Below, in pieces: positions 527 to 64,000 of a stretch of DNA of 64,000 nucleotides. Source of the DNA: Anthoceros angustus (lineage: Eukaryota; Plantae; Anthocerotophyta); the NCBI GenBank assembly GCA_010909165.1, contig MU008182.1:62001-126000 (forward strand). Direction: 5' to 3'. The position numbers and the translations under genes are program-made. The stretch's first letter is position 1. Every line of letters starts with the position of its first letter. The notes below the pieces were generated by a model that had not been told where the DNA came from, did no database searches, and saw only the letters and a list, made by a program, of their open reading frames with translations.

Positions 527-803
527 TGATGAGAATCATCATTGCTCTAGGTAGCAAAACATAGCGGATAGTGAAAGCTTTGCACAAAAGAGTTGTATGC
601 ATTGATTATAATAGAAAGTACAAAGCCTTTATATAGGCTAGGTGGTTATAACCATAAGGTGGTTGTAACCATAAGTAGTTCTAACCTCTAAGTGGTTGTA
701 ACAACTAACTACTCATTAAACTACCTAAAGCCCTAAGAACTAAATTAATTAATAGCCTTAGGTGCCCTAGTGAAGAGTGCCCTAAATAGGTCATATTTCA
801 TCA
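527..803 (-). repeat. 3' LTR of Copia-A
   Basis: TGATGAGAATC...ATTTCATCA, direct repeat of 7792-8074, adjacent to the PPT. Confidence 0.93.
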
Positions 804-815
804 CTCCCACTCACT
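804..815 (-). promoter_or_regulatory. Polypurine tract AGTGAGTGGGAG
   Basis: Abuts the LTR; the same motif occurs at 49727-49738 and 57550-57561. Confidence 0.85.
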
Positions 816-1071: not shown

Positions 1072-2540
1072 ATGGGGGTCATCGTTAATGTACCCCCATA
1101 CGGTTTTATTCCTCCTCCCGCTCCCGCTCCTGCGCTCCCGCTCCTCCCGCTCATGAAGCACAAAGAACTTGCTATGGCGCCGGGGCACAAACTGGGCAAG
1201 GCGCGCGCCGTCGTGAGGGCCCAGCGGGCGCGCGCCCGCGCCGCCGCCATACTGGATCACTGCGGTGGTGCGGCGCCGATTCTGCAAGTAGATGGGTGCC
1301 AACCTGCGGTGGAAAAAGAAAGAAGAGTGCCGGGAGGGACGCGCCCGAGAGCAGACGCCCCCACTTGTGCAAACACGTGATCCTCTGCACCGTCTAAATG
1401 GATTCCAACCTTTGTGGAGAGCCCACCACGTTTTCGGTGGGATGAAGTGGTGAGCTCGTGTAGAGGTTGAAGTCACCGGGAGAGGTGGAATTTGTTCTGC
1501 AGGTCAAGATCGCCATTGATGTGTGAGTCGCCATATGCGAGTGTCTCACCCAAGCCGGAGATTAAAAGCGATCTTCCATGTCTTGTCTCAATTTCTCAAA
1601 AGTGCTGCTAATCCCAAGCCAAGCTCCAACTGCGGCATGTCGTCACCAGTTGTGCGGTGAGAGATCGTCGAGGAAGATTCAAAGCTCCTGTGGGAAGAAA
1701 TCGCCGAGATTGTTCTCTTATCGATACAAGTGCCTCGGAAGAATCTTCATTGAAGGGCTTCCACGCCTCGATGAAGGGAGGCTGAAATCTCAAGTAAGAT
1801 AGCGGCATGGTATAGCAGGCATTCCCCTTGTCGTGAAGGGAGGCACCTTTGCAGGATGCCCCCTTTGTCATGAGGAGAGGCACCTAGTTGTAAGCCCGTT
1901 TGTGGGCATCTTCAAATGACCATTTTCCAGTTCAAAATATTAATTGTGATGAATTTTCTGATACTATTTTCGCAGATTTATGTATGGAAAATTATGGGAA
2001 AAAGGAAAATGAAAATGAAAATGAAGAAAATGAGAAAATGAAAAGGTAGACATGCTTTTGTGACTCTAAAAGGTGTTCTAACTTATTTTCTCTTGCTAAA
2101 ATCTTGCCCATTTTAGGTTTCTTTTCCGCCCAAGAAAGACATAGAATAGGAAACATAGGATTCGAAACCGGCATATATCCCAAGGGTGATGATGTGAAGC
2201 TCATCTATATAATCACTAATATGAAAGGGGAATTCGGACGTACCTCCATGCTCCTATGTTTGCCGAAACTAAGATACATATGATACGGGTTATGTCTTGT
2301 TTGTGAAGAATTTCCGGGCATATGATCCATGTCTATCGTGAGTATTCTTGAGGTTAAGAAAATATGAAAAGTTTTAATTAGCAAAATATTATTTAATATT
2401 TTAATATTATTTTCTAGAGAGCACCTCAACTATGTATGAAGGAGGATGGACTACAGCCTATGTTAAGATTGAGGATGATTGTTCAAGACTTAGAATAGAA
2501 TATTGGATTACTAAGGTTATCTTAAGTAGACCAATTTAGC
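1072..2540 (+). pseudogene. Spliced antisense accessory gene of Copia-A (degenerate, unknown function)
   Basis: Putative GT..AG introns at 1890-1975, 2046-2116 and 2338-2417; short acidic exon; SYVC...CEEFPGHMIHVY resembles EYIC...CEEYEGHTKHLY of Copia-C; the 5' boundary is a guess. Confidence 0.55.
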
Positions 2541-7791: not shown

Positions 7792-8074
7792 TGATGAGAA
7801 TCATAGCTGCTCTAGGTAGCAAAACATAGCAAGCAGATAGTAGAAAGCTTTGCACAAAAAGAGTTGTATGCATTGATTATAATAGAAAGTACAAAGCCTT
7901 TATATAGGCTAGGTGGTTATAACCATAAGGTGGTTGTAACCATAAGTAGTTCTAACCTCTAAGTAGTTGTAACAACTAACTACTCATTAAACTACCTAAA
8001 GCCCTAAGAACTAAATTAATTAATAGCCTTAGGTGCCCTAGTGAAGAGTGCCCTAAATAGGTCATATTTCATCA
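7792..8074 (-). repeat. 5' LTR of Copia-A
   Basis: Direct repeat of 527-803. Confidence 0.93.
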
Positions 8075-12107: not shown

Positions 12108-12289
12108 TGGTGTGAACTTGTGTGTTGAAGCTATGCGCGAGGTTGGTTGGAGACGTCTGATCAGCATCAAACTCGTTCGATGCACTGCCTTCTCGTCACA
12201 AGAAGGCCAGGAAGATCCCTGGATGGTCGAGAGCGGAGTGGCCAAGCTCCACGTCTGGAAGTGGTGGAAGGTAACGGGCGCAGACGATT

Positions 12290-18689: not shown

Positions 18690-19600
18690 GGGTTATGTGG
18701 TGTTGGAATTATTCGGGGGTTTGTGCACTGGCTTGGAGGCTCTATTACGTGCTGGCGTTTTGGTGCGTCAATATTATTACTGTGACAATTGTCCGGTCGC
18801 TCAACAGATTGCTGGGCATCGCTTGCAGCAGTTACATTCTCGCCATGCTAGTTTGTTTCCGATCTCTGCATTTGTGACTACGTTCACTGCTTTACCTCAA
18901 GATGTCGGTGACATTCACCAATCCCACATCCAGGCTTTGCCTCCGGTTGATCTGGTGATCGCTGGATGGGAGTGTCAGGGGTTTTCCCGTGCTGGCCAAG
19001 GTGCGGGTTTGCAGGATCCACGGAGCGGATCGTTTTTGTCGTTGGCTCGTATTTTGCATTGGCTTCAGCAGGTGCACCCTCATATGGTGTATGTTCGAGA
19101 ATACTCCGGCACATTTAGATCCTCGGCCGCACTTGTTTTGATGCTACGTTGATCCAACATGTGGTGGGATCTCCGTTTGTCATGGATCTTTCGCAGTCGG
19201 TAGCTTTGCCCACCGTTACGCGCTATTGGACCAATTGGGCTCCATGCACAATTTTGCAATTGGCACTTGACATCTGATTCGTGATGATCAGCTCCGGTTG
19301 CAAGATGTTTTGGAACCATATCATAGTCCGGTGAAGGCGTGGAGAAGTCTCCGTGGTTTCCAACTAATCGGCACCGGCATGCCGCGCCGGACTCTACCAC
19401 TGGTCGGTTTTCCGGTTCTTATGCGTATCGTGGGGGTCAATGGGCTGTTGTTGGAATGTTCGTGCTCAACGATGGGAGGAGCCCTCTTGGAAGAACGAGA
19501 ACGTATCATGGGGTTTGATACTCATACTCAGTTGGCGTCACTTACAGTCGGATTGCTGCTCTCGGGCGTGCTATGGATTTACGCTTACACGGCTTGTTAC
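18690..19600 (+). CDS. DNA (cytosine-5)-methyltransferase domain embedded in Gypsy pol
   Basis: Motif I VLELFGG..G; DV.DI; motif IV DLVIAGWECQGFS; DPRS..F; EN across a frameshift (~19097); AHR.R.YWTN; ERERIMGF; LGRAMD. Confidence 0.9.
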
Positions 19601-22479: not shown

Positions 22480-22612
22480 TATCCATGCCAAGTCGCGGCG
22501 CATCGGCGATCCGGAGCTTATGTTGTTGTGTGGCGGATGCAATGGTGGATTCCATCTATTTTGTTTGTCTCCACCACTCAGAGGTGCAGGTGTTTGGTAT
22601 TGCCTGCCTCTC
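22480..22612 (+). CDS. PHD finger at the integrase C-terminus
   Basis: MLLCGGCNGGFHLFCLSPPL...WYC fits the C4HC3 pattern; the first Cys pair is frameshifted. Confidence 0.85.
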
Positions 22613-22725
22613 GGAGTAAGGGTACTCGGGAGCGGTTTGGCGCTGTTATGTGAGTCTTCTTGGTTGTTTGGTTCTCCTTGGCGGTGATGTTGCGACTTTG
22701 GGCTTGACGTCCTTCGCCCTGGGAA

Positions 22726-27581: not shown

Positions 27582-28400
27582 TGTTACCATAGTTTAGTAT
27601 CGTCTAGTTAAACCTAAACACATGGTTACATATATAGTGGTCATGTAAATTAGGGTTATACACGAAGGGTCGTGTAGATAGTATTTGAAACATTTTTGTG
27701 TATGCATTTTTATATTATTCAATCTAGCTATCAAGAGTTTATGCAAGCTTTCTCGTACCTGCTCGATAATTCACATGGTATCAGAGCATGGTGCTTTGCT
27801 TCCTACTAACAGATCCTAAGAATGCCGAGGCAGGGCGGCTGTAGGGGAAGTTGGCGAGTGCACTTCCAAGGAATCAAAATCAGGAAGTCCATTCACGAAG
27901 ACAAACATCAACTGTCCCTATCAACACATTGCTGGACCTCTACGAGCATGAATACCCTGCACTTTGGCTTAGGCGTTTTGTAGCCCAGCGCAGCACTCCT
28001 CCTAGACCGGCTTACATTCTCAATAGAAATCAGGAGATTGATCGCCTGTATGAGGGGCGCGCCCAAGAGAGAGACAGAACCGGTGTTCTCGACCTAGGCT
28101 GAGCATCCTCTTCCTGCATAAGTCCTCCTGTGCTACAACATCAAAGAAACAGCACCATCAGTGACTCCACACAACTCAGGAACGACACCAATGGAAGGAC
28201 TACATTGGCTACCTTAGCTCGTGCGGAGAAGGTGTTGACTTTATCGCTAGCCAACCAGGAATCTAACAGGAGCAGAGTTGAGAGCCTTAATCGCAACACA
28301 AAACGAGCCATCTCAAATTGCAAGCAGGAAATCAAGCAGGATCTCAATTACATTACTATTCCACCTTGTAGTGAATTTGCAGATCCCGGAGACTAGCTGC
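27582..28400 (+). mobile_element. 5' LTR (27582-27775), iMet PBS (27776-27788) and truncated gag region of an LTR element inserted into the Gypsy RNase H
   Basis: TGTT...TCACA followed by TGGTATCAGAGCA; abrupt junction in the RNase H coding sequence. Confidence 0.75.
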
Positions 28401-29099
28401 AATCATTCTGTTGTTGGACAGAAGGCCCAACAACGTCTGTTGTGAGGGTTTCTCCACAAACCCCTTTTTGCTTCAGACGTTTAGGACCCTTCACCGTGAA
28501 ATCCATGCTTGGAATCGTACTTTTTGGTATTTCTCCCGACATATCACCGCAAACATTTCAATTATTGTTGCGATACATGATGTTACATTGTGCATCGAAT
28601 TACGAGGAAAACCATCGAGACATTCACGATCGCTTTTTCCTTGGGCCATGCTATTTGTGCACAAACTTGTGCGCACTCACATTAAGCGATCTCAACGTTG
28701 ACAACGGTCTATGTTTCTAGCTAGTTTGGCGAATGTTGTCTTTTCCTCGGGACGACGATGTCATCGTTCTCTTGCGGTAGTTGCGGATCGTAAATAGCAA
28801 GAGGAAGATATGGCGTTTCTCCACCTTGGGATTGCCAAACCCAAAGCGTCTCCGGATGTTGGTTGTCCCAAGTAGTCGCTTTCTTACGGTCTTCGCACTT
28901 CTTTCCGTCACGGGTTCTTAGGGTTTCGGACCTTTTTGCCATCTTTCTCTTCTTCTTGGCCCTGTGATTGACTCAAGTCTTGAAGGTCGATGGGTGCGCA
29001 TGTTCCTTGAACCAAGTGTGGCGTTTGCCACAGGCTTAAGCGATCTCTCCTGCGCCATCTCTTTGGCAAAAACCGGATGTCCACGTTTGTGTGGTTTGG

Positions 29100-29950
29100 T
29101 GGTCAACTCTTCCTCAAATGCATGGAAACACTTCATGGCACATGTCTTATTCGATGAATATTGTGCTCCTCTGTTCTTGGTCAACACAATACAGTTCCTC
29201 CCTTCGATAATGCAAGTATTCCACTTCCGAGCATCCATCTATAACCCATTCCCTCTTTACGTGAATAGGTCGTATAGCGGGACCATCAACCCTATTGGCT
29301 TTTGGTAAGGAGAAACAACATGGCCATCGTTGGACACATTCAAAAGTTTCTTCACATTGCGCTATGTCGAATAAGCAGCATTGCTCCAATCTCGGTGCGC
29401 ACTATTGGACAATGCCGCGCACTTCCTCATATCTTCAGCAGTTGGGTGAACACCATACCCCACATCATGTACTCATGATTCTCGTAAAGTCCCTCGTCCA
29501 AAACCAAGTTGTCTTTCTCCCGGACCATTGTATAAACCCCTTTTCACACCATTTTAGCGGTGCATTTGGACATCCATCTGGTCGGTCCATGCATGAATAT
29601 CAGCGGAAAGTCTTGCATTCGGTGATTGTCATGAATCCATCCATTATCTTCTCCAAATCCTCACATGTCATCTCCTTATCCCATGTCTCCGATAAATTGC
29701 CCCTTGGTAAATCGGCGACCAACGACTTGTATTCTCTTTTCCCCAAGTAGGCAGCCATTTCACGAATATCACCGATTATTACAGTAGCGGACCTTTGCTT
29801 GCTTTTGAACATGGAAAATGTCTAGTTTTGCGTCGTTGTCTTCCTCTGACTCTCTCTGCAAATCTTCCACCCTCTTCCAATTTCTTGCCGCATTGATGTG
29901 CTCTTTGAAGCTATCGGGTATCATCTTCTCTTTGTACTCTTACTGATTAT
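29100..29950 (-). pseudogene. Beta-class N4-cytosine/N6-adenine DNA methyltransferase-like domain
   Basis: VIIGDIREM, SLVADLPRG..WD (motif IV-like), SPYQKPIGLM..LYDLFT, EWVIDGCS(G)SG (motif I-like), GRNCIVL, in beta order; read across frameshifts. Confidence 0.65.
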
Positions 29951-31420
29951 GCATGCGGGATGGAGGCGTTCATAGGTGAACACGTGACGAGTCGCAAACT
30001 AGTTTTGCGCTTGCTAACTCGAAGCGGACAATACCGTGTACTTACAATGTGATCAAATGCGGTTGAAATTTCGCTATATCTTACGGTGTCGATTAAGTAT
30101 TCTCGGCTCAATGTGCAGGGATGAAGTTGTCTGACATTATCGGATCTTGGGGAGGAACCGGATGACCCAAACTTCAGTACTGCATTTCTTGCAAGGTGCC
30201 GTCAACCTATTGCAAAGAGTGAGGCATACCTTCTGCAAGTGAGGACTCGAAGTGGATGCTTCTTCACATGCCGGGTATGGGCGACCCCTGATCTGAGGCG
30301 AGTCTGAGGCAGTTCCTCTTCCCTTTGTCGCGTATAGCGATTGTGTAGGTGACTCGGTTGGCCTGGTTCGACCATGGTTTGGGACGTTGACTTTGAAGAT
30401 TTGGCTGAGGCTGATAAACAAGCTGCAACAAATCCAGCTATCCATGCCCTAGATATAGGTGCCCAAAGGTGGTGGCGCTCGGGCGAGAGGAGAGGAGGGG
30501 CCCATCGGCGGCCGTTTGAGACACGATCCAGTGAAAGTCTTGGGCCGGAAAAATGGCCAAAACAACGAAACACAGCGGTGCATGACAAAACGGCACAATG
30601 CTTGGATGGAAACACGGCGAAGGATGGTCCTAGCGCGACAAGTGAGGTGGGCGCGCACATGGAGAATCGGATTAATTTGAAATGGAGGGTGGATGATCAT
30701 CGCGTGGAGCATGAGGCGGCAAGAGAGGTCTTGGTCTTTGGAGGAACAACTTCCTCACAGTGGAGTCTGCCGAAGATGAGGGCGATCTTTGAGAGAAAGC
30801 GGCGCAAGAGTGGATGTCTCTCCAATAGGTGGGGAAGACAGCTGGAGGTTTGCTATAGGAGAATCCAAAACTTTCGGAGGAGGAATGCGGGCGTGACATC
30901 GGAGGAGGAGGAATTTGGCGTGAGTCAGGAGAAAGAGGGCATGGTGATCGGGAGGGCATGGTGGTGTTGCGAAGGGCCGGCCGTGTTGGCGTGAGAGAGG
31001 CCATTGGTTTGTGGACCTTACATTCGGTGGCGATGGACAACCCCAACAAGCGTGGGAGGAGGTGCTGTGGAGAGGAGGCTGCCCTAAGGTGGGCAGTCTG
31101 CTGGAGGAGGCGGTTGCGGAGGGGCCAAGGGCACGCATATGATGGTCGGGAGGACGGTGAGGAGAAGGACACCAATGGCGTGATGATGGGAAAGCGCGGC
31201 GAGGCGAGATGTGGAGATGGCGGATGATGAGGTGGAGGCGGACATGCAAAGTGGATGTCTCCAATAGGTGGGAGCGACCTTTGGGCTGTTTGCTATAGGA
31301 GAATCCAAAACTTTGAGGAGGAGGGTCTGCCGTGACATCCGGAGGAGGAGGTGGCGTGAGTCCGGAGAAGAGGCGTGGTGATCGGGAGGAGCATGGAGGT
31401 GTTGCCGAGAGGCCGACCGT

Positions 31421-48400: not shown

Positions 48401-49426
48401 ACGAAGGATGTGTACATATATATGTACACATACTTACACATACTTATGTCTTGAAGCCTATATACATATATACGTATACAAAGGATATGCAAAGGAGGTA
48501 AAATAGGAAGAGAAGGATACCCTCCGGGGGCGAGAGAGGTCCTTGTTACAATCATGTTGCAAGAGGAAGAGGGAAAGAGCATGAAATGGTTGTGATAGGG
48601 GAGCTCCTTCTCACAGTCATGATGGGAGGAGAAGAAGTGAAAGAGTATAAAAAGGGTGTGATAAGGGGAGCAATAACTAGCAGGGTGAGGTGAGAGGAGA
48701 GAGACCAAGCATTGTGTTAAGATGGTGTGAGAAGGTGGATAAGAAATCGACACCCTTAACACCAAGCCACCAAAGAGTGTTGCAATTTTGAAGTGGTACA
48801 TGAAGTGAGAGACCAAGCATTGCGTTAGGATGGTGGGAGAAGGAAGAGAAAAAATTGACCAACTGAACACCAAGCCATCAAAATGTGTTGCAAGTTGGAA
48901 GTGTTACATAAAATTACAACAACGACTGTAACAAGGGCAGGTGGGAAATTATCAACAATGCTTGTGAGAGAGGGGGTGTACCCATAAGGGTGAGGTGGGA
49001 AGAGGGAGTGCCAGGTTCGCGTTAAGATGGCTGCACCAAACGGGGACAGAATTGACAAACTTAATACCAAGCCTCCAAAACATGTTGCAATATGGAAGTG
49101 TAACAAAAAATTGCAACATCGACTGTAACATAGGCTGCCCTTTTCTAATAGGGGTTGGTTCCCTCCATGAGAGTGATTCCATCGTCTTCGCTAGCCGGTC
49201 ACTCATACACTTGCTTTATGCTCCTCAGTGTCCAGCATCTCGGATTCGTCCTAGCGTTCTGTTTGGGCAAAGCCGCCAATTCCTCCTCTATCTGATGTAG
49301 ATTCACATAACACTCCTCGATTAATTACAAATTGGAGTATGTACAATGTTTCATGTACATCCATTCTAGCTGGATATTCTTCTCCGTTGCCCAAGGCCCA
49401 AAATGTGCGAGATCCTTAGAAGACAA

Positions 49427-49726
49427 TGATGAGAATCAATAGCTCTTAGGCAGAAGAGATACAATACAATGAATTGATTAAAGAGTAAAGTACAAACCTT
49501 TATATAGGCTAAGTGGTTAGGTGGTTAGGTGGTTAGGTGGTTAGGTGGTTAGGTGGTTAGGTGGTTATAACAATATGTTGTTATAACCACCAAGTTGTTA
49601 TAACTAATATAACAACTAACTACCTAGAGCAACTAAATAGATAACTACCTAATGCCCTAGGCATAAATTAATGTTTAAGTAATGTGGCCCTAATGAATAG
49701 TGCCCTAAACTAGATATATTTCATCA
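49427..49726 (-). repeat. 3' LTR of Copia-C containing (GTGGTTAG)n
   Basis: TGATGAGAATC...TTTCATCA followed by CTCCCACTCACT. Confidence 0.88.
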
Positions 49727-50461
49727 CTCCCACTCACTATGAACGTAGGGGTGAACTCTAGCTTTTAAATGAGGCTTAAAACATTAATAGGCTCCCACTT
49801 AATCAAAAGTTATAAGCTTAAGAAGAAATAAGCCTATTCTAAAAACTGAAAAAGTAAAAATAATATACCAAACCTGTACAAGGTTATTTCGTGGTGTGGT
49901 CATATGTGTGTCCAAATGGCCTAGGCCAAATGGACACACATTTATAAGAACGCCGTGATTAAGCATCCTGAGCTTGGATCGGTACTTAGATGGGGTGCCT
50001 AGATGGGGTGCCTAAAGGGAGTGGATGCCCTTGGTGCAAGTAGCTTAGGCACACCATGGTACAAGTAGTTAAGTACCAAGTCCCATGACGGAAATCCGTC
50101 CTTAGTAGACTTAAATAAAATTCTTCTTCTTCTTCTTCACGGCACATCTGCTGTCCTATCATAACTCAAGCGCCCTAGCCCGGACCAAGACGGATGGGGT
50201 GACCTCTCCGGAAGTCGCTGCTACACGGTGTCCCATCATAACTCCACTGTTAAGCGCCCCTAGCCCGGATCAGTACCGGGATGGGTGACCTCTCCGGAAG
50301 TCATTTTGAATTAAATCTTCAACTTGAAATGGACTTATCCGTTCCAACTACCCTGCCCACCAATTGGTGGATGGGGTGGAAGAAGTCACTTGCGACCCCC
50401 GCAGGGATCACCCTCCTGGGCACGCCTGGCCGTCATGATTTGCCCCCTTTGCGCCTGCACA

Positions 50462-50720
50462 TGATGAAATAGGTCTAGATTAGGCACTATTCATTAGGGC
50501 CTCATAACTTAAACATTATTATCTACCTAGGGTTATTTAGGTAGTTAGTAGTTATATTAGTTATATTGGTTACAACAACTTACGGTTGCAACTACTTATG
50601 GTTGCAACCATTTATGGTTGTAACCACCCAACTACCAGCCTATTTAAAGGCTTGTACTTTACTCATTAATTACTTACATTGTTTCTTCTTCTTCTAATCT
50701 AAGAGCTCTGATTCTCATCA
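50462..50720 (+). repeat. 5' LTR of Copia-B
   Basis: TGATGAAATAGG...TTCTCATCA. Confidence 0.93.
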
Positions 50721-50732
50721 TGGTATCGAGCA
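50721..50732 (+). promoter_or_regulatory. PBS (tRNA-iMet, one base missing)
   Basis: TGGTATC-GAGCA. Confidence 0.85.
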
Positions 50733-50879
50733 TCGTTGCTCTCTTGCATGCTTATGTTTCTTATATATGAGGAGATTATTTACAAGGCACTCTTAAATCT
50801 AGCATTCGTCTAGATGGAGTGCTATTGTTCTACATTCTCTATTTCACCAATTCTTCATCTCTTCCTTTAACATGCTTAT

Positions 50880-51194
50880 ATGTTTCAATCTTCTATAATT
50901 TCTCCATGGACTTCAATTCTATTAGAAGGAGAAAGCAAGGTTAAAAGGAAAGAGAATCTCATTAGGCAACAAGCTATTGAGAGTGAAATAGAACAAATCT
51001 CTTCATCTATAGCAAATTTCATTGCATCAATTTTATTTCCAAAACCGGATCAAGGGAAGCTTATCAAGTTATCAAGATGTCATTTACTTGAATACTTCAG
51101 CCCTATTCATATTAAAGCTTTGGAATTGGCCCTTAACCATATTCCAAATTTAATAATTGGATTAAGTTCTTCCGTACTCTGTTTTGACAAATAA
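50880..51194 (+). CDS. Conserved ORF upstream of gag
   Basis: Homologous to 7224-7589. Confidence 0.6.
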   Translation: MFQSSIISPWTSILLEGESKVKRKENLIRQQAIESEIEQISSSIANFIASILFPKPDQGKLIKLSRCHLLEYFSPIHIKALELALNHIPNLIIGLSSSVLCFDK

Positions 51195-51451
51195 AAATAG
51201 AATTCAAACTCCATCTCTTCATGATTTTTATAATCAATTTTCATCTCTTAAAATTGGTCTCTAATCTTCAAACTGAATTATTTGATTTGAAATCAAAATT
51301 TTCTTTGCTTTCGAGTTTAATACTAATCAAGGATTAGAGAGTATGTCATCATCTCCCCGAAAAGCGATGGATGAATTCTATATGTGCAATAAAATTGAGC
51401 ATAAGCCTTACATATGACTTTGTCCTTTAAGGACGATTAGCTATGGAGTGA

Positions 51452-54400
51452 TTGAAGAAGAATTTGAAGCTACCCAAAACTCGCCTATGGGGTAATGATA
51501 ATGTCCATCCTCCCACACATTATCATTTTGGTGATGGTTTCAAAGAGAAAGATAGATTCAACGGGAAAGATTATGATATTTGGGCATTACGTATGCGAGG
51601 AGCATTGAGACAAAGAGCATTATGGGGTATTGTTGATGGATCCATAACGAGACCAAGGTCCGATGATGAACGAGAACTTCAGATTTCCTGGGACGCCAGG
51701 GATGAGAAGGCACAAGATTTATTAATAAGTGGACTCTCTCAACAAATGGTCAGGCATGTTGCACGCAAAAACATCTCATGAAATGTGGTCTCACCTTACT
51801 CAATTATATTCATCACAAGATGTAATGAGCATTGTGGCAGCTTCTCGTAACTTTCGTAATTTATTTATGAAAGAATCCGATACTATCGAACATCATATTA
51901 ATGCTTTTAGACAAGCACGTTCCCAAGTTGAATCGAATCGGTGTACCTATATCCGAGATGGAAGCTTATGTCACCCTTCTATCTTCATTGCCTCCCTCCT
52001 ATCGTCCATTCATCACTACTCAAACGCAGCTTATTCGCAATTCACGGAGAACCGCAGATGATGGCACAAAGGGTTTGACATAAGTGTTTAATCGATCGAG
52101 CACTTCTCCGTGAGGAGGCAAGTAGGCGCCATTCTCACTGGCCTAATAAACAACAAGTAATGTACTTGCAGAGGGGTAGAGGAAGAGGACGAGGCAGGCC
52201 GAGGTTACTCTTCCCAACGCCTCCATATTCTTCGCCAAGTACGAACATTGGAGAAAGCTCTTCATCGACACCTTCAAAGGGTAAGAAGAAGAGCGGCATT
52301 ATATGCAATTGGTGTAGGATCCCTAACCATATGGAAAAGGATTGTCACAAAGAAGAATGGTGAACCTCGCAAGGAGGCTTCACATGGAGTTAATGTAGCA
52401 TCTAAAAAGCAAACTTCATCAACTCCAATGTTGCTCACCGTATGTTTGGCATCATCCAAGCCTCGCTAATACCTCATGGTATTTAGACGGAGCAACATCA
52501 CATATATGTTACAACAAAAGTTATTTTCAATCATACTCACCAACCACGTGGCACCAAGTCGTCCTCTTGGGAGATGATCACAACCTCGCCTATCAAGGTA
52601 CGGGTTACATTGTCGACATGTGATTCGGACAAGTCCTTCACCTCCACCAAGTACTCCATGTTCCATTAATGTGCAAGAATTTATTATCGCTTGCAAGTAT
52701 TTGTCAAACCCATTCCATGCGGTGACCCTTTTACGATAGTTGCTTTCTCTCTCATGTAGGTGATAGCAATCATATTATTTGTAGTGGTACTTTAGAAGAT
52801 GGCCTTTATAGATTGTCCGTCCTAGTAGGAGGTCAACAATCTTATGTCACCGCTTCTTCTCAAAGTCCCCTCCATCAATGTTATGGCATTGTCGCCTTGG
52901 TCACCCAAATAGTCAAAAACTCACCCGGATGTCTAAGGAAACTTTTACGAAACCCATGTCTTGCAAATGTTGGGCATTTATCACAGTGCGAAACTTGTGT
53001 CCTCACAAAGCGTCACCAAGAGCCTTTTAAAACAAATCTCCACAAAGGGCAAAGAAACCTTTAGAGATAGTGCATAGACATCCTGGACCTCTATCTACAT
53101 CTTCTTTAGTGGAAGTAGGTATTTTTGACTTTTATAGATGATTTTTCCCGTTTGTCTCCTCCTATGTCTTGCAAAACAAGTCTGATGCTTTTCAATTTTT
53201 CAAAGATTATATGAAATGGGCGAGAGACTTACAGATTGCAAACCGAAAACATTACGCTCGACAATGGAGGTGAATTTACATCTAATCGATTTGAGGAGTT
53301 TTGTCGAAGGTATTGCTCAACAACTCACCGTTGTCTATACTCCTCAACAAAATGGGATAGCCGAAAATAAAAATCTGCGTTTACAGAGATAACAGTTGCT
53401 TATTAACACAGTGCCAAGTTGCCTAAGGTTTATTTGAGGCCCTTCTTACCGCAACCTATCTTATCAATCGCTTACCTACATCAAGACATGATGACGCCTT
53501 ATGAAGGCGTTTATTGGCAAGAAACCGTCCATTGATCATCTTCGTATTTTTGGATCACCGCATATGTTTTCATTCCTAAAGCATTACGTAAGAAGTTGGA
53601 TCCCAAGGCAGCCAAGTATCTTTTCATAGGATATATCAAGGCATTAAAGGGTATAAGTTATATAACCCTTCAACAAGACAACTTCTTTATGCTCGGAGTG
53701 TTACATTCCATGAGTCTTACCTCTTTTCTCCAACAGTGGGAGTTGAAGTTGTCGCCGATGATGCTAATGATTTTCTACATTTGATGATCCTAATCCCTTC
53801 CTTTCCTTGTCCCTACTCCTCGTGTTCCTTCTGTGACCCCATGCTGCAGGAGGAGGAGGAGCCTCTTCCACCTTCATCCGATCCCCTTGAGGCCATTTCA
53901 AGATGCTATACCTCCTGCTCAAGATGATAATGATCTTGGAAGTCGCGATAATCAAGAAATGGATCCCTTAGAACAAGAAGATGAACCAGCCTGTGGAAGA
54001 CACACCGCACCAAGGTACAACCTTAGATCACGTCCACTCATCTCGGCCTGCTGGTTGGAAAGAACCCCTTTGGGATACCTTGCTATTTTTCCCGATTCTA
54101 ATTCTCCGAGTCCCTTTATAATCAAGCTATGTGCCACCGAGACTTAGAAGAGCCTCTTACCCTAAAACAAGCCTTCTCTTCTCCTCCAAACATCTATGGA
54201 AGGAAGTCAGATTCGAGTATAATTCCCTCATTAGTAATTCTACATGGGAATTAGTTGAACCTCCTAAGGGTAGAAAAATAGTAACCAGCAAATGGGTATT
54301 TAAGATAAAGAGAAAGGAGATGGATCCGTGGAAAGGTATAAAGCACGCCTAGTTGCTAGAGGTTTTACCCAAATCGGACTAGACTATATACCTTGGGCCA

Positions 54401-55667
54401 CTTATGCTCCTGTAGCCAAGTTTGCCACTCTTCGCATGATCGCTATATGCCCGAGACGATCTTGAACTTCATATGATGGATGTGAAGACAACATATTTGT
54501 ATGGGCGCTTGAAAGAAGAAATATACATGAAGCAACGAGGGTTATGAAGTAAAAGGCAAGGAGCATTTAGTATGTAAATTGATCAAGGGTCTATATGGAC
54601 TCAAGCAATCCGCAAAAATTGGAACTTGACCATCCATATACAACTCTCGAATAAGGGATTTAAGCAAAGTAAAAGGCGATGCTTGCTTATATATTTACCT
54701 TAAGGAAATGATATATTTTACCTTCTATTATCGTCGATGACGCCTTTATGGCAACAAACTCTCTTATTCTCCTAATGAGATAAAAGCATGGCTTGGACAT
54801 TATATGAAAATGACCGACACAGGAGAAAATGAATTATGCACTTGGTGTAAATATTATCCGCGATAGGAGTAATAAAAAGTGAGCATAGTTCAAACCAAGT
54901 ATATAAAGGAGAGTTTAGCAAAATTGGAATGGAAGATGCAAAGCTGCACCCACACCTTTTGCTAGTGGCATCAGCTTACTTGATATGAGTCCTAAGAGTG
55001 CTCAAGAGAAAATGGAGATGGCATCCGTCCCATATCGACATGTCTCGGCACTCTCATATATTTAAGCAATTTTACTAGACACGATATTTCTTTTGAAGTC
55101 GGCCTCACGCTTTTGGAGAACCCGACATCAACACCGGATGTCGGTTAAGCGTATTTTTCGATACCTTAAAGGGACTATGCAACAGGTGACATTTAAGCAT
55201 ACACCGAATCAAAACATTAACACTTACGGCATATGCCGATGCCGATTATCTTGGTGATCCCGATACTCAAAATCCGTATCGTTATGTTTTACTTCTTGGA
55301 GGAGCTCCAATATCATGGTCGAGTAAGAAACACCTACCATTGCCTTGTCTAGTCGAATCAATATAGAGTACTAACATCTATTTCCAAGGATATAGTATGG
55401 TCTAGGCTAATTTTGAGTGAACTTAATCACCCTCAAGAAACCCAACATCTCTTTTAGTGATAGTAGCCATAGCACTTGCTAGAAACCCATTCCATTCCAA
55501 CCAACACATAGTTGAGTATCACTATATCGTAGAGAAGTTGGAAGATAACACTATAGATATCACTTATATACCAACACAAAACAATCCAAATTGATTTGTT
55601 AACTAAGTCATTAGGGAGAGATTTGCATTTAAGACACATGAAAATGTTAGGTATTCAAGAGGTTTAA
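51452..55667 (+). pseudogene. Copia gag-pol (many frameshifts)
   Basis: FNGKDYDIWALRM..LWGIVDG, CNWCRIPNHMEKDC, WYLD, LGHPN, TFIDDFSR, DNGGEF, TPQQNG, KWVFKIK, GAPISWSSKK. Confidence 0.92.
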
Positions 55668-55697
55668 GTCACTAGCTAGTATGTGTCAATGTATTTT

Positions 55698-57100
55698 CTA
55701 TAGTCCACACATCTTGTCTAGCATAGAAATTTCCTCTCCTAACTCTATGTAGTCCTCACTGTACTGCTTATCCTCTCTTTCTAATACCCAGAAGGATCCT
55801 ACAATACACACCATGGGTTATAAAGTGAAAATGATGAAAAGATAGTACTTAAGTCGTTAGGTTACTTACTGTACAAGTGTTTGGTGTGTCCTTCATATTT
55901 TTCACATGGGGAAGCACCTAACCACATCATCTTAATCCCTCTCTTTTCACATACATACTCCATGGGAACTTCATGGTCATCCTTTCCTCCGGAAGAACCA
56001 AGTAGGTTGCCTTGCATAAGTTTCCGGTGGCGGTAGGAACTAGGAATTTTCCTTTTGCACTTGCTCTCTCTTGAGTAGGTCGTAGAGGTAGGGCAAATCT
56101 CACATGGCTTGTGCCCACACTCTTATCTACACCGCAAAATAGAGATATTATTAGGAAAATGTTAGTTTAGTTTACGGTTTTTGGTATCATCTTTCCTACT
56201 CACTCCTTGGCTCTTCTATTGTTGCTATTACATCCTCTATGCGGTCATTTACACAAGGATGTGATCTCCGCTTGGCTACCCTCACAAATAGCTCTGAGGG
56301 TCTCTTGGTTTTATAGAGTCCTCGACTCTTCCGAATCTTCATTCATTTTGAAGTCATCATATTCGGCCTCGATTGGTGATGCTTGGCTTTATCGGATTAT
56401 CTACATCCATATTTATTAGCATTTTATGCACTCAAAATTTTTATGCAATTTATTTTGCAATTTATTGACTTACCAAGAACTTTGACTTCTCTCACAACGA
56501 CCTTGGATTTTTCCATGAGCGTCTGCACCACCAGGATATCATCCTCTTCATAAGTGGTGCACGGCTGCACGTTTTCCTTCTTTCTTTCTTCCGCAAGTAT
56601 CCTCCTTCCGCCACCAAGTGCTTGTTTGATTTTATCAAGACCCATGTTTCTCGCCTCACGAGACACGGACCCTCCACTCGGCCAATCAGATATTTATCAA
56701 GCAACTCCAGCAATTTATTTAGCAATTTATTTCAGCTATTTCCAGCATATAAATCCAGCAAATATTTCAAAATTTGATTCGAGCGAGCACCTTTTTATCG
56801 GCACGGCTGGATTCGCCAAATTCGCTATTTTCTCACCGATCTTGGCAAGTTAGGCACCGGTGACTTGATCGCTACGGATCGGCTGTGATCAACAAGCGAA
56901 ATTTTTGGAGTGATGGATCTCCGGATCGATGCGATGGCCGGGCCGGATGGCGCGAGGCTGGATGGCGCGAGGCTGGATGGCGCGCAGCTGGCTGGATGGC
57001 GGCCCGGCCGATCAGGAGATCGAGCGGATGGCGAGGATTGCACCCGAGGTGCGCGGAGCGCGGAGGGTCGGGCCGATGGCGCGAATGGATGGCATGGATG
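55698..57100 (-). CDS. Spliced antisense accessory gene of Copia-B
   Basis: Exons 55870-56132 and 55698-55798; 71-nt introns at 56133-56203 and 55799-55869; last exon reads RSFWVLEREDKQYSEDYIELGEEISMLDKMCGL*; upstream exons not resolved. Confidence 0.75.
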
Positions 57101-57269
57101 GCGAGCGATGGCGATCGGAGATGGCGCGGCGATCACGAGGATTGAGCACCCGAGGTGCGCGGAGCGCGATGCGGGGGGGAGAAGACGGTTTTTGTCTCCC
57201 CCGTTTCGTAAACCGCCGGGCGGCCGTTAACGCCGAACCGCCCCTACCCGCTCACAGGCGCGAGAGGGG

Positions 57270-57375
57270 CCGTCAGATTTATAGGCCGAAATGGGCCTAT
57301 CCTGGCTTTTATTTATAGGCCGAAATGGGCCTATCTGTTTTAGCTTTTATTTATAGGCCATTTTGTGGCCCGCCT
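57270..57375 (-). promoter_or_regulatory. Candidate promoter of the antisense gene
   Basis: Repeated ATAGGCCCATTTCGGCCTATAAAT on the minus strand (site II-like GGCCCA plus TATA). Confidence 0.4.
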
Positions 57376-57561
57376 ATTTTGTTTTTCATTTTCTTTATGC
57401 CTATATTAAGTCCTTATTTATGACTTGATTATATGTTAGATGCTTAAGTTTTTAAGACCTTTTCTTAAGCGAGATAACTTTAGGTTTAGTGGGAGCCTAT
57501 TTAACATTTAGGCCTCATTTTAAAGGCTAGACTTCACCCCTATATTCATAGTGAGTGGGAG

Positions 57562-57821
57562 TGATGAAATAGGTCTAGATTAGGGCACTATTCATTAGGG
57601 CCTCATAACTTAAACATTATTATCTACCTAGGGTTATTTAGGTAGTTAGTAGTTATATATTATATTGGTTACAACAACTTACGGTTGCAACTACTTATGG
57701 TTGCAACCATTTATGGTTGTAACCACCCAACCACCCAGCCTATTTAAAGGCTTGTACTTTACTCATTAATTACTTACATTGTTTCTTCTTCTTCTAATCT
57801 AAGAGCTACAGATTCTCATCA
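57562..57821 (+). repeat. 3' LTR of Copia-B
   Basis: Direct repeat of 50462-50720. Confidence 0.93.
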
Positions 57822-57826
57822 AGACA

Positions 57827-59277
57827 GGCAGCGATGGCGCGCCCTCGGCCTTCTTCCTCAGCGCGTACCATCCGGGCATGGAAGGGCCATGCTGCTGCCT
57901 CGCCGAACGCAGCCCCGAGCCTTGCGCAGCTGCGCGTAATGGTGTCGCTGACGCGCTGCAGCGTGCGATCTTTAACCCAGCAGGATCGATCCGATCTGAA
58001 TTCTCGCCACCGTACTCGCCTCCAATCCTAATAAGAATCTTGGTGAAGATCAACAAAACGCCTATCCTTCTGCTGAAGCTGCTGAAGATGAGGATGAATT
58101 CATGGTTGTCCAGACCCAATTGCATGGATCGGGTGTTGTTCTTCAACAAATTGATGCTCCTCCAAATAGTGGTAAGTTTGATCAATACCTAATTTTTGGT
58201 TTTATTAAATTACCAAAAGAAAATGCTTGATGTTGCATATGCATTTTCTTAATGCATAAATGCTTATTGCCATGGGTGGTGGTGTCGATGATGATATCCC
58301 TTGCCGATGGAAGGAGACCACGTGGGCGAGAGGCCCCTCCCCATGCCGACGACGACCTTCTCCTACTCCATCCAGGAGCCGGAGTCAGGATAACGGGGTG
58401 CCAGGTTTGCCTGATTTCTGGAAGTACCCCAATATTCCTCCACCTGTGTCCACAGATCCACCTGGTTACGACGACTTTGACATCGAGATTGATGAGGAAG
58501 AATCCGCCAAGGAGTCCGGAGATTCGATGAAGACCGATGTCACCTCCCGCCGAGCAGTTTGTGAGGGCAGGCCTAGCTGGAGGTCTCAACCTTGTGTTGA
58601 TGGAGGATTTGAGGACGCCAATGGTGCCGACGCCCTCAACAAGCTTGTATCAGGTAAGCCTGTTTGCATAGTTATGAAAACATAGAAACATAACAACATG
58701 GTTTCTGATGGCGATTTCCATTGCAGACTGGGAAGGTAGCAAGTCGCAACCAGAGGTGGCCGCGAAGAGCAATGTAGCAGAGACTAGTGAGGAGAAGTGT
58801 GAGTAGGAAGATAGGGTGGTGACCTATATATGTAAGCTAGCTACTAGCACTTTATAATTAATAAAAACTACTTCTATTGCAGATGTAGATAAATGTGTGG
58901 GCACAAGCCATGTGAGGTTTGCCCTGCCACTACATGCAACCCAAGAGAAAACAAGTACAAGAAGGAAAATACCAAATTCCTACCTACCAGCTGGGAATCT
59001 ATTTAAGGCTACCTACTTGATATTCCCAGGGGAACCAAATGACCATGAGGCTCCCATGGAGTATATATGTGACAAGAAAGGGATAAAAATGATGTGGTTA
59101 GGTGCATCCCCATGTGAGGAGTATGAAGGACATACAAAACACCTATATAGTAAGTGACCTATAGTGTTTGTTGTAGGATCCTTTTGGGCATTAGAGAGAG
59201 ACACTAAGGAATACAGTGAAGACTACCTGGAGCTAGAAGAAGAACTAGAAACGCTTGACAAACTTTGTGGCTTGTAG
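57827..59277 (+). CDS. Spliced antisense accessory gene of Copia-C (5' part probably left of 50462)
   Basis: Donors at 58172, 58654, 58799 and 59150; acceptors at 58726, 58882 and 59176; phase-1 exons of 72 and 267 nt splice in frame; last exon reads RSFWALERDTKEYSEDYLELEEELETLDKLCGL*. Confidence 0.8.
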
Positions 59278-59295
59278 TTTTCTAAGTTATTTCCA

Positions 59296-60650
59296 CTAGC
59301 TTGATGGGCTTATTTTAACCTCTTGTATTCCTAAACTCTTCATATGTTTTAAATGCAAATCTCTTCCCAATGGATTTGTTAACAGATCAGCTGGATTCTC
59401 ATGGGTTTGGATGTAATTTATATCTATTGTTTTATTTTCTAACATCTCGCGTATGTAATGATATTCTACTGCTATATGCTTAGTCCTTGAGTGGAAGACA
59501 GGGTTTCTGGCTAAAGCTATAGCTTCCCGACTATCACTGAAAAGAGGTGTGGGGTCATTTTGAGGATAGCTTAGCTCGCTCAATGCTAACCTACTCCAGA
59601 CTATATCTTTGGAGACTGAGGTTAGGACCCTATACTCTGACTCAGTACTTGACAAAGCAATTGTTGGTTATTTCTTACTTGACCATGAGATGGGAGCCCC
59701 TCCTAGCAGTAGTACATAGCCGGATACAGATTTACGGCTATCTGGGTCTCCGGCATAGTCAGCATCAGCATATGCTTTTAAGGTTAACTTTGATATGCCG
59801 GGTACATGTTTGTACATCAATCCTGTGTGCATAGTCCCCTTTAGATACCTGAATACTCTCTTGACACATTGCCAATGTTGTCTTCTAGGGTTCTCCAAAA
59901 ATTGTGAGACTGCACTAACTTCAAAAGATATGTCTGGTCTAGTGAAGTTGCTTAAATATATTAATGTACCAACAGCATGTCTGTATGGTACTGCTGACAT
60001 TTCTTCTTTCTCAGCATCTGTCTTAGGGCTCATATCTGAAGTGAGCCTAGTGCCACTAGGAAATGGTGTGGCAACTGGTTTAGCGTCTTCAAGTCCAAAC
60101 TTGTCTAAACTTTCTTTTATATATTTTGTCTGTACTAGACTGATGGATTTGTTATTTCTATCCCTTATAACTTTGACGCCAAGGGCATATGTTAGCTCTC
60201 CTAAGTCCGTCATTTCATAGTGACTTCTTAGCCAAGCTTTAACTTCAGCTAGGTGGGAGAGTGAAGATGATGCTAGGAATAAATCATCCACATAAAGCAA
60301 GAGGTAAAGTGTATGATGGTTTGACTTTAAGACATACATACTTGCATCAGCTTTGCTTTGTATAAAGCCATACTTGATAAGCTTGTCATGTATATCCTTG
60401 TTCCATTCCTTACCAGATTGCTTTAGGCCATACAGACCTTTGATTAGCCTACATACCATATCTTCTTTGCCCTTGACCTCATAACCCTCGGGTTGTTTCA
60501 TGTATATTTCTTCTTGAATGCGTCCATGCAAGTAAGCAGTTTTGACGTCCATCATATGAAGCTGTAAATCATGTTGAGCGGTCAAGGCTATTATCATTCT
60601 TGAGGAGGCAAATTTTGCTACTGGAGCATAAGTAGCCCAGGGTATGTAAT
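59296..60650 (-). CDS. Copia RT + RNase H, nearly intact
   Basis: MDVKTAYLHG, LYGLKQSG, LLLYVDDL, YADADYAG, SSTESEY, RTKHI, ADLLT. Confidence 0.95.
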
Positions 60651-63600
60651 TGTGGAACGCAAAAGTTTGGGCAACCAGCCCAAAAGAGCCCGAAGGCAAA
60701 CAAGTTTGATTCTTTTTGGCTAGGAACGATTGAAGGGAAGCATGCCAAGAAATTTTCTGAGGATCTTGAAGCTAGAGTCGTAGGATATTGTTAGGAAGGC
60801 GAAGAGGATATCCCAGGAAAAAGAACGGGTCAAAACAACCTCCTGGCAAGGCGCGTAAGGGTCCAAAGGCGAGGTCGCGCATCACCGTAGGGTCGCCACA
60901 CTACGCCGAGGTCGAGAAGGCGGACTACGCGGTGGTGGTAGACTACCGCGTAGGTCGACGATCTCGCAGAAAAGAAATTAATATAAGAGGGATATCCACT
61001 ATATATGCCCACCAATAGGGGAATAAATATATAGAGTAATTAGTAAGCGATTAATTAGCGACAGCGAGCAGGATAAGAAAGTAGGCAGGGTTAAGTAATT
61101 TGGAATGATGAACCAAATCTAGGGTTGTGAAGCCTCCAGGTGGCGGTCATCCAAGGAAGGCAAAGTGCAGTTTGGGCAACACCAACTTTCTCTCCGAATT
61201 GTGGCGGCTTCACTTCGTGACAGACTGAAGCTGGAGCATAAGAGCTAGGCGCAACGAAGAAGGAAAGGGAGGCTACCATCGCCACGCTGCCGCCGCGACT
61301 TGTGACCAAGGGAAGGACGGAGCACGCGCTGAAACAGGGGAGGAAACCCTAGCTAGGCGCAAGGAAGAAGAAAAGGAGGCAGGCACTAAGTGCTCTAGAA
61401 CACCGAGGAGCTTCCCGGACACTGTGAAGTGGCGAGGAGCGCGTTACGAGTGCTGGCAGCAGAGAGCGAAGGGAGGAGGCGCCAAGTCGGAGCGCATGCG
61501 ACCTCGCGATTGTGAAAGGAAGAACCGCGAAGAAGAGGTTGTCAGCAGCTGAAAAACTCGAGCCAGGGCTAACGTGTATTCCAGGGCGCGTGTTGTTCCC
61601 ACAATTGGAAGCGGAGCAGAGGGCACAAGGGCGCAACAGCGAGGCAGCGTCGAAATTGGCGGGAAGGATTGAAGGAAGGTGCAAGTCACCCACGCGAAAC
61701 GCCCTCGCGTTGAAGAAAAAGGAGAAAAGAAATTGGTGGGAAGCAAGCCAGGTCTAACCTTGAATTTGTGTGATAGAGTTGCTTTCCACCAAGGGTGTTT
61801 GCTGAGCTGAGGCACTAAAAGGGCGAGAGAAATCGCAATTGGGAAGTAGCTTCCTCCTTTGACAGCACTTGGGAAGTAATTCACTCCCCTAGCAACAGTT
61901 GGGAAGAAGAACGCCACCATGCCTCGAGCAGGAAAAGGCAAGGGGAAGGAACCGCCTACCAAGGGCTCCTCCTCGAGAGGACGTAAAGGAAAAAAGGCGG
62001 CAGCGGAGGATGCGCCGCCAGGAGGGGGCGAGCTTTTGATGCCGCAATTTACGTGCTTTGCAGGGCAGCTCAACCCCAGGGATTTGGTCGATTTTCGATT
62101 TTCGGTGGGCGGAGGAGAACATCAATTGGGATGGGTGTATGGCGCCAATGGGCCTACACTAATTTAGAAGCGATTGAGTGTTTCATCAACCTCCATCAAT
62201 CGAAGCCCTTGCGCGTTAGGAAGAAATGCTCACGATCCTCATTCTTTGAATAGTAAGGAGCATCTGGCGAGTGTATGGGAGGCGGAAGAGGAGAGCTCGA
62301 ATTGCTCTCCTCGAAAGGTCGAATGGAGGGAAGAGGCCCTCTAGAAATCCGCAAGAGTTCCTTGACATGATGGACGGAGGAGTGAAGGCCCACGCCAAGA
62401 ATGGCTGGAAAACAGAGAGCATCAAGGAGCTGAAGTGGAGGCTCTTTGCAAAGATTGTGCTGGGGTTGGTAAATTACCAACGAACTTCTTATTTTAGCAC
62501 CAACTTCCTCCAGTTTTTGTGGAAGATTTTCATGGGAGCCAAACCGGATTGGGGAACCATTATGTATGAAGCATACATCCACCACCGGGAGAAGCTCCTC
62601 AAGCCAAATTCAGTGGATGAGGAAGGCCCAAGGCTACCTTAGCACCTATTTGGTGCATTTGTGGGAAACAGGGACTTCTCACAAGCAAGGAGTTGAAGAT
62701 GCATGGCATCCTTTGAGATAATCCATCTCCACCAAGTTTGGAAAGGCCTTTGCCTTTTGCATTGAGGAAGATGGAGGTCGACTCCACAAGCATGCTAGAG
62801 AGCAAGAGGAGGAGGCAACAAGGTCCGGAGTGGGAACTTTTCCCACAAGAGCAAGCAAGGAGAGGAAGAACCGCCGAGGAAGGCCGAATGGTAGTCTATG
62901 AGAGAAGGACCACGGGCCCAGAGTGGGGGAGTCCCCACCATCTCATTTGTGCCTAGGAAGAGGCACCCCACTCACCCGGGAGGCACCCCACCTGTGGGTG
63001 CACCACTGGTAGGCGGCCACCACCATGGTAGGTAGGCGGACTACCGCGGGGGGGAGCAGCCACCATGTAGGCACCCCACGCCAGAACAGCCTCACGCGGT
63101 GGAAGGGAAGGAGAAGCACATGAGGCGCCGGGCGCCGGCCACCATCACCCGCTACCGGGTGGGAGAGCGGATGGAGGGGACCTCACCGGATGGCCGGAGT
63201 GCAAGGAGCTGAGATTTCCAAGAAGAAGAGAGGGGTGAATTAGGACCCCTAGGAGAATTGGCCGAGTGCTTGTGAAGCACTCACCTGTGGATTGAAGGGG
63301 CTAGGAGCTAGCAGCCTCCTTGTGGGCATGCCAAGAGGAAGTGAAAGCCCAAGACATGGCCGGAGGAAAGCAGGACCAAATGGCAATTGGAGGCCATGGA
63401 GTCCGACGAAAAGGCAAGGGAAGGAACCGCTACCAAGGGCCTCCTCGAGAGGAAAGGAAAAAAGGCGGCAGAGGATGCGCCGCCAGAGGGGGCGAGCTTT
63501 TGATGCCCAATTCACTTGCTTTGCGGCAGCTCAACCCTGTGGATTGAAGGGGCTAAGAGGAGAACATCCAATTGGGATGGGTGTATGGCCGCCAATGGCC

Positions 63601-64000
63601 TACACTAATTTGGAATTGATTGAGGAGTTTCATCAACCTCCATCAATCGAAGCCCTTGCACGAAAGGAATGCTCGAACGGATCCTACCTGGGACAAGGAG
63701 CATTCTGTGTGTATGGAGACCGGAGGAGAGAGCTCGAATTGCTCCTCGAAAGGTCGAATGGAGGAAGAGGACGGCCCTCTCCGAAATTCCGCAAGAGTTC
63801 CTCGACATGATGGATGGAGGAGTGAAGGCCCACGCCAAGAATGGCTGGAAGACCGAGAGCATCAAGGAGTCAAGTGGAGGCTCTTGCAAAGATTGTGCTG
63901 TTGGTAAATTACCAACGACTTTATTTCAAAGACCAACTTCCTCCAATTTTGTGGAAGATTTCCATGGGAGCCAAGCCGGATTGGGGAACCATTATGTATG
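60651..64000 (-). mobile_element. End of an LTR element (probably Gypsy) inserted into Copia-C RT
   Basis: RT homology stops at ...GTAAT|TGTGG; TG start; followed by an accessory-type ORF; orientation inferred by analogy with 12290-16800. Confidence 0.55.
61919..62956 (+). pseudogene. Retroelement accessory ORF, duplicated from ~63410 to the window end
   Basis: GKGKEPP...PQFTCFA...KNGWKTESIKELKWRL...KPDWGTIMY occurs twice, ~1.48 kb apart. Confidence 0.6.

Follow-up and report, generated by a model that had tools for sequence, protein, structure and literature searches.

A predicted intron-containing antisense gene under purifying selection in Copia retrotransposons of Anthoceros angustus

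Can a Ty1/Copia retrotransposon carry, on the strand opposite to gag-pol, a second protein-coding gene that is split by introns? The question is raised by positions 55698–59277 of a 64,000-nt stretch of Anthoceros angustus contig MU008182.1 (hereafter the window), a nest of retrotransposons with long terminal repeats (LTRs) in an assembly rich in deletions, for which the initial annotation had proposed a spliced antisense coding gene kept by a Copia lineage and belonging to no recognized family. Three related Copia elements (A, B, and C) were looked at in the window. Copia-C is nested in the 3' region of Copia-B (at 50461/57822, within exon 1 of the antisense gene of B), so that the interval covers the 3' regions of two different elements. 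The core of the proposal was supported and could be extended to the third element, splicing being a prediction: the antisense layout was found in all three Copia elements examined, and the coding sequence is under purifying selection between B and C.

In both B and C, the antisense gene is located between RNase H and the polypurine tract (PPT), on the opposite strand to gag-pol (Table 1). The details first described for its 3' part hold in both copies, namely a GTGAGTAGGA donor at B 58799 and C 56203, a GTAAGT donor that immediately follows the codons for HLY, at B 59150 and C 55869, a last exon of 101 nt ending CGL-stop, and tail-to-tail stop codons, which had been placed ~20–30 bp from the pol stop and were measured at 18 nt (B) and 30 nt (C). 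The upstream exons are also homologous between the two elements (exon 1 end, z 7.3; exon 2, z 12.6). A gene of at least five exons matching between the copies had been claimed, and five exons were indeed delimited in B, but only four in C, where the 72-nt exon 3 of B has no detectable counterpart (z = 0.1); an origin of this exon as a duplicate of exon 2 was unsupported (z -0.4). By inspection, the predicted introns of B and C (58172–59176, 55799–56473) are all in phase 1, the exons are therefore symmetric, and gain, loss or skipping of exon 3 would be possible without a frameshift. The introns had been called diverged, which is correct for their lengths (intron 3 has 84 nt in B vs. 71 nt in C), yet intron 3 is still 72% alike outside gaps. 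The acceptor of C that matches B 58882 lacks AG, and an in-frame AG is found 6 nt further on in both copies.

Selection was evaluated on the one B–C pair, using those 117 codons of the last two exons that align without gaps (codons with gaps were left out). These differ by 41 synonymous and 31 non-synonymous substitutions, distributed as 19/12/41 over codon positions 1/2/3, which corresponds to proportions of synonymous and non-synonymous differences (pS, pN) of 0.58 and 0.11, to rates (dS, dN) of 1.13 and 0.12, and to a dN/dS of 0.107 (bootstrap pN/pS 0.12–0.30; Fisher p 9e-16). The ratios were 1.4 and 1.9 in the other two same-strand frames, and 1.9, 1.6, and 0.29 on the opposite strand, the last one belonging to the reverse-strand shadow frame; no other alternative frame came near 0.11. 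The antisense coding sequence is thus under purifying selection between B and C, as first suggested, and, apart from the shadow frame, this is specific to the coding frame. The accompanying statement that exon differences are mostly synonymous was right about the synonymous excess and overstated the proportion, as 30 of the 57 differing codons are synonymous.

It is established retrotransposon logic that introns antisense to the genomic RNA survive retrotransposition. In Copia-A, -B, and -C, the sense RNA from the 5' LTR would be the copying template, in which antisense introns would be read backwards and not be removed, so that they would be inherited through copying. In the 3' regions of the three elements (5051 nt), GTRAGY donors were counted 13 times on the antisense strand and never on the sense strand (4.2 expected per strand), and the absence of sense-strand donors fits introns that are not removed from the sense RNA. 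As controls, we used those of 81 distant Copia-type loci that had sufficient downstream DNA (46 loci); they contained 39 antisense vs. 47 sense GTRAGY donors, and none of them had the strand-bias pattern. The antisense exons had no match at E up to 1 in the 81 loci. Upstream of the antisense gene of C, within the internal region, lie candidate GGCCCAWW/TATA repeats, the pattern GGCCCAWW+CTATAAAT having been picked post hoc; we presume that such units, with their TATA-like part, are of a plant promoter type.

With stop codons only 18–30 nt apart, the antisense 3' untranslated region must extend into RNase H. This overlap could serve self-restraint, whereby either the RNA (through double-stranded RNA or transcriptional interference) or the protein would limit copy number, and Arabidopsis Copia elements are reported to produce multi-exonic antisense non-coding RNAs (bioRxiv 10.1101/2024.04.02.587720). 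We consider such a role distinctly unlikely, given that an RNA-only function leaves the dN/dS of 0.11 unexplained.

A distant homologue of B exon 4 is present in Copia-A. Its alignment score was attained in none of 150 shuffles and in one of 150 random segments, and ~20 of 54 residues are identical in the core. The predicted last intron of A has its site and its phase in common with those of B and C, following the same HxxHxY motif. Further copies were found in a sequencing run (X1; contigs only, from either RNA or DNA), which may derive from the window's own organism. Its contigs cover B-type cargo (58473–59443, variants ~85–96% alike) as well as A-type cargo (1874–2608), and in two of them the intron at the position of the last B intron has ~74–76 nt, vs. 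27 nt in the window. Among the A-type length differences listed, 11 of 12 are letters missing from the window, and therefore many of the frameshifts in A are probably assembly errors, while 8 of the 18 B exon substitutions listed are synonymous (p 0.03). X1 keeps the introns, and at the predicted junctions it has no joint whose ends are splice sites; DNA or unspliced genomic RNA would look alike in this respect; the run shows a multi-copy family and bears on copies, not on expression. The chance that the antisense frames are accidents of duplicated or mis-assembled repeat DNA, as a deletion-rich assembly with local duplications might produce, is very slight: the frame-specific synonymous excess has already largely refuted it, and it is further opposed by the conserved intron sites, by a strand bias absent from the controls, and by the presence of the same region in the short-read-type contigs of X1.

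By exon sum, the B protein would have ~380–400 aa, starting with a Cys-rich part, which would be followed by an acidic linker and, C-terminally, by a conserved domain of ~120 aa. The latter contains Y-x-C followed by C-x5-H-x2-H-x-Y and an acidic helix. The possible zinc ligands are C, C, H, H and one upstream H in B and C, with one more C in A; this pattern likely represents a single putative C/C/H/H zinc site, whose motif is reminiscent of the tail in B-box, ZZ, and UBR-box fingers, with a spacing that resembles the UBR box. B-box, ZZ, and UBR-box fingers are described as having eight ligands ending in HH (CC/HCCCCHH, CCCCCCHH) (PMC4506424), so with four to five ligands no known binuclear finger is intact in B and C; membership in these groups was rejected, half of the ligands being absent and neither Pfam nor the PDB giving a match. 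The exon pieces also had no Pfam match to Transposase_28, the plant mobile domain and related DUFs, or DUF3716. For exon 4, none of 7 candidates from a word-based search of longer proteins and none of 13 near-length proteins with an alignment were homologous. Scans of metagenome and viral contigs confirmed 0 of 150 and 0 of 1 stretches, respectively, and the best ESM Atlas scores (0.80 and 0.83) were at noise level. Two isolated matches were discarded: the sole HMMER match (P0121, E 2.4e-5) was the sum of weak similarities to the repeats in a surface protein of bacterial type, and PHROG 25507 (E 2.6e-4, unknown function) was taken as chance, the match spanning intron-derived residues. That no family could be recognized for the protein was therefore borne out by Pfam, PHROGs, PDB sequences, the ESM Atlas, and 1.84 billion representative proteins. 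Modeling, which had been recommended for the C-terminal region, was run with AlphaFold, and the two models (predicted local distance difference test, pLDDT, 34 and 33) were unusable, also with regard to a treble-clef fold.

Cargo and pol did not diverge in parallel. The pols are about equidistant (nucleotide identity over 218 shared codons: B–C 72%, B–A 74%, C–A 75%), while exon 4 is 81% identical between B and C, with A at shuffle level (118 and 120 matches, the mean of the shuffles being 116). At the amino-acid level, cargo identity is 77% for B–C vs. ~35% for B–A (RT/RNase H of B–C, 74%; RT, reverse transcriptase), and third positions differ between B and C at 25/76 sites (0.33) in the cargo vs. 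112/214 (0.52) in pol (p 0.005). Unequal cargo next to equidistant pols fits either a cassette exchange between families or a burst of change in the gene of A, and the three sequences, from a noisy assembly, suggest a 3' cassette that may have been swapped between families or may evolve in bursts. Such uneven divergence would be expected in a conflict with the host.

These patterns also bear on two other readings of the gene. In the first one, the gene is real and its protein acts in the particle or at the integration step, as a chaperone, in nuclear import of the pre-integration complex, or in insertion targeting. The sequence evidence would be the same, roles of this kind have been proposed for antisense open reading frames (ORFs) and retroviral accessory proteins (PMC7264820), and targeting to repeat-rich chromatin would agree with how densely the elements are nested in the window; one would, however, expect a Gag or integrase partner to diverge along with pol, which the cargo does not do, and no chromatin-reader domain was detected in Pfam scans of the exon pieces, which makes this reading unlikely. 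In the second one, a gene of the host or of another mobile element was captured once, ancestrally and in antisense, and either benefits the host or rides along, its selection predating or being independent of any element function. An origin as a nuclear gene is suggested by introns that are short and rich in AT and have splice sites of the host type, and the B and C cargo is younger than the pols, a pattern that repeated capture from two host paralogues could mimic. We nevertheless regard capture as decidedly improbable, as three families whose pols have diverged by ~50% at third positions carry the gene in the same place, 18–30 nt from the stop codon of pol, it is present in several X1 variants, and the public proteins yielded no cellular homologue, nor thereby the match to an ordinary host gene fragment that had been considered at the outset.

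Protein-level selection between families implies that the protein did something for the elements that carried it, and it is very probably a functional gene carried by the element. Granted this, a nuclear anti-silencing or regulatory role is narrowly favored, based on the analogy with Grande gene 23 and with VANC of VANDAL DNA transposons and on the uneven divergence; the anti-silencing or targeting factor initially imagined gained no direct support, since no homologue, domain or usable fold was obtained. The complete explanation, to which we give an even chance, is that the lineage bears a second gene between pol and the PPT, which would have a promoter of its own near the 3' LTR, and whose antisense transcript would be spliced and translated into a nuclear accessory protein acting in the element's favor in a family-specific manner, most likely against host silencing. 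A bolder version, which we rate as unlikely, would see a swappable intron-containing antisense cassette that is exchanged between families independently of pol and whose product, an effector with a novel zinc-binding domain, acts against silencing or on chromatin; it would be the retrotransposon counterpart of VANC and belong to a hidden class of spliced cargo genes that are invisible to ORF-based surveys of LTR elements.

Several points weigh against a functional accessory gene of this kind. No Pfam match was obtained with any exon piece (E up to 1 or 10), searches of PDB sequences gave no match, and a full HMMER scan found no real homologue among the 1.84 billion representatives, while B and C keep only four to five possible zinc ligands. 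The window contains no intact copy: C interrupts B, whose last intron measures 27 nt, frameshifts affect A and C, and AG is missing from two acceptors; with the four single-base losses of the C exon-4 homologue relative to B, neither of the two copies reads intact in this deletion-rich assembly. Furthermore, the dN/dS derives from a single sequence pair in an error-rich assembly, and the homology of A and B is modest by sequence alone (z ~3.5), the last exon of A not being significant.

Table 1. Copia-A, -B, and -C and their antisense genes, with positions in the 64,000-nt window (PBS, primer-binding site)
Feature	Position	Strand	Remarks
Copia-A 3' LTR and PPT	527..815 (LTR 527-803, PPT 804-815)	-	5' LTR at 7792-8074
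A antisense exon, distant homologue of B exon 4	2118..2337	+	frameshifted in assembly; score 39
A last intron, predicted	2338..2417	+	GTGAGT...TTCTAG, 84% AT
A last antisense exon	2418..2540	+	end approximate; similarity to B last exon z=0.7, not significant alone
Copia-B 3' LTR and PPT	49427..49738 (LTR 49427-49726, PPT 49727-49738)	-	
B 3' region beyond nested C	49739..50461	+	candidate ATG and CxxC motif at 50435-50461; putative start codon
Copia-C 5' LTR (TG...CA)	50462..50720	+	254 matches, 3 substitutions vs. 3' LTR
Copia-C PBS, tRNA-Met type	from 50721	+	directly after 5' LTR
Copia-C gag-pol	51452..55667	+	frameshifted in assembly; Retrotran_gag_2 and SH3_retrovirus matches; RT/RNase H aligned to B
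C last exon	55698..55798	-	101 nt, ends CGL-stop
C last intron, predicted	55799..55869	-	71 nt, GTAAGT...TGTAG, phase 1
C conserved exon, homologue of B exon 4	55870..56132	-	four single-base losses relative to B
C intron, predicted	56133..56203	-	GTGAGTAGGA donor; matching acceptor without AG, in-frame AG 6 nt on
C acidic exon, homologue of B exon 2	56204..56400	-	score 73 vs. shuffle mean 24, z=12.6
C first intron, predicted	56401..56473	-	AT-rich, GTAAGT donor
C exon 1, 3' part, homologue of B exon 1 end	56474..56660	-	z=7.3; only 3' part delimited
Promoter-like repeats, C antisense strand	57277..57356	-	two GGCCCAWW+CTATAAAT units and a third CTATAAAT
Copia-C PPT and 3' LTR	57550..57821 (PPT 57550-57561, LTR 57562-57821)	+	
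B exon 1, part after C insertion	57822..58171	+	Cys-rich start, acidic end; frameshifted
B intron 1, predicted	58172..58269	+	GTAAGT donor, 75% AT; acceptor without AG, end approximate
B exon 2	58270..58653	+	acidic, Pro-rich; start approximate
B intron 2, predicted	58654..58726	+	73 nt, GTAAGC...TTGCAG
B exon 3	58727..58798	+	72 nt; no counterpart detected in C
B intron 3, predicted	58799..58882	+	84 nt, GTGAGT...TTGCAG
B exon 4	58883..59149	+	open frame; conserved domain with Y-x-C ... C-x5-H-x2-H-x-Y motif
B last intron, predicted	59150..59176	+	27 nt in this copy
B last exon	59177..59277	+	101 nt, ends CGL-stop
Copia-B RT and RNase H	59296..60640	-	RVT_2 E 2.7e-51; one in-frame stop

The elements themselves belong to Ty1/Copia, as indicated by RVT_2 in B and by the order Retrotran_gag_2, SH3_retrovirus, RT/RNase H in C; the nearest full-length RT found was 51% identical. 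LTRs of the TG...CA type, a PBS, and a PPT were found in A (minus strand, 5' LTR 7792–8074) and in C (plus strand, 7.36 kb, PBS Met), and for B the 3' LTR and PPT only were located. The 12-nt PPT is identical in the three elements, their LTRs are 78–81% identical, and the flanks of Copia-C and of Copia-A each match imperfectly as a 5-bp target-site duplication. Rfam gave no match in 49400–60700. In C (GC-rich, 56930–57170) and in B (a 75-nt repeat, 50152–50302), short tandem repeats occupy part of the stretch from the PPT to the antisense coding region, and resemble arrays reported in Retand 3' regions (PMC11963269). The RT of B is interrupted at ~60645 by another insertion, which contains a duplicated unit at 61932–64000 (61932–62568 and 63408–64000, 83% alike), where the ORFs tested had no Pfam match. 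A ~600-nt triple tandem within the pol of A and a 1.5-kb duplication, with indel-rich differences (3910–5839 and 8345–11304), are possibly assembly artefacts. Elsewhere in the window, another TGGTATCAGAGC primer-binding site followed by gag-like sequence marks an apparently truncated LTR element (27787–30100, plus strand). Downstream of a Gypsy RT, RNase H, and integrase (12275–14285), several antisense ORFs of 144–205 aa (14721–16666, minus strand; no Pfam match) are possibly another antisense extra gene. A Gypsy-type element at 17965–22690 (plus strand) combines a C5 DNA methyltransferase domain (18271–19149), an RT (20247–20552), an integrase zinc finger (21299–21601), and a PHD finger (22307–22684); it resembles KnitGypsy-Dnmt3 of the charophyte Klebsormidium, in whose published main text 'PHD' is absent (PMC5890265). 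The methyltransferase domain of this neighbor hints at a streptophyte alga or an early-diverging land plant as host.

Antisense extra ORFs between pol and the 3' LTR (aORF-3R or eORF-3'R) are known in Ty3/Gypsy, e.g., in maize Grande (gene 23), rice RIRE2, Retand (TRP28 ORFs), and Ogre (PMC7264820, PMC11963269, PMC6317226), the product of Grande gene 23 being described as nuclear and the gene as having its own promoter (PMC7264820). The gene of Copia-A, -B, and -C is like them in position, orientation, and candidate internal promoter, and may also be like them in its presence across related elements (three of three examined, plus X1 variants) and in a conservation near that of pol (B–C amino-acid identity, 77% for the cargo and 74% for RT/RNase H). 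It differs by its Ty1/Copia host element, by being split by three to four predicted introns, and, from the Retand and Ogre proteins, by the lack of Transposase_28 or a plant mobile domain. The env-like ORF of SIRE is in sense orientation downstream of pol, whereas the gene described here is antisense.

According to REXdb, 3'-reverse ORFs occur in 86% of Retand and 60% of Ogre elements, in 1% of SIRE, and in at most 6% of Bianca and Ikeros (with an ORF column that is not assignable), and are absent in most Copia lineages (PMC6317226). The survey counted only unspliced ORFs of at least 250 codons (PMC6317226), a screen that would miss genes split by introns. Our literature search, whose coverage left out most subscription journals, retrieved no report of a protein-coding spliced antisense gene in Copia, and the novelty lies in an orphan antisense cargo gene that is under selection, is carried by Copia, and has three diverged members. 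As such genes are regarded as next to absent from Copia elements, a predicted spliced gene in three Copia families suggests an overlooked class of cargo, and it offers a new protein family, exact predicted junctions, and a comparison of similar pols with different cargo for the study of conflict with host silencing. A review has called for spliced antisense transcripts to be looked for (PMC7264820).

Also hosted by Copia are the antisense transcripts of Arabidopsis Ty1/Copia, which are likewise multi-exonic (as predicted here) and common to related families; they are described as non-coding, with starts that mostly lie in the 3' LTR (bioRxiv 10.1101/2024.04.02.587720), while the exons described here are under protein-level selection (dN/dS 0.107) and the promoter-like motifs lie inside the internal region. 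The brtn gene of Boty, as described for this Botrytis Ty3/Gypsy element, is likewise an extra antisense gene in an LTR retrotransposon, with a fungal Gypsy host. HBZ of human T-cell leukemia virus type 1 is also an antisense gene for a regulatory, nuclear protein in the 3' part of an LTR retroelement (PMC11963269). It differs in belonging to a retrovirus, in encoding a bZIP protein, in using an LTR promoter, and in sharing no homology with the gene of the Copia elements. The HBZ transcript is spliced, and VANC proteins evolve fast. VANC belongs to DNA transposons and had no detectable sequence similarity to the protein predicted here, so that the likeness is one of function only, and the anti-silencing role suggested for the Copia gene would follow by analogy from what is reported of VANC, i.e., an element-borne accessory gene that diverges between families.

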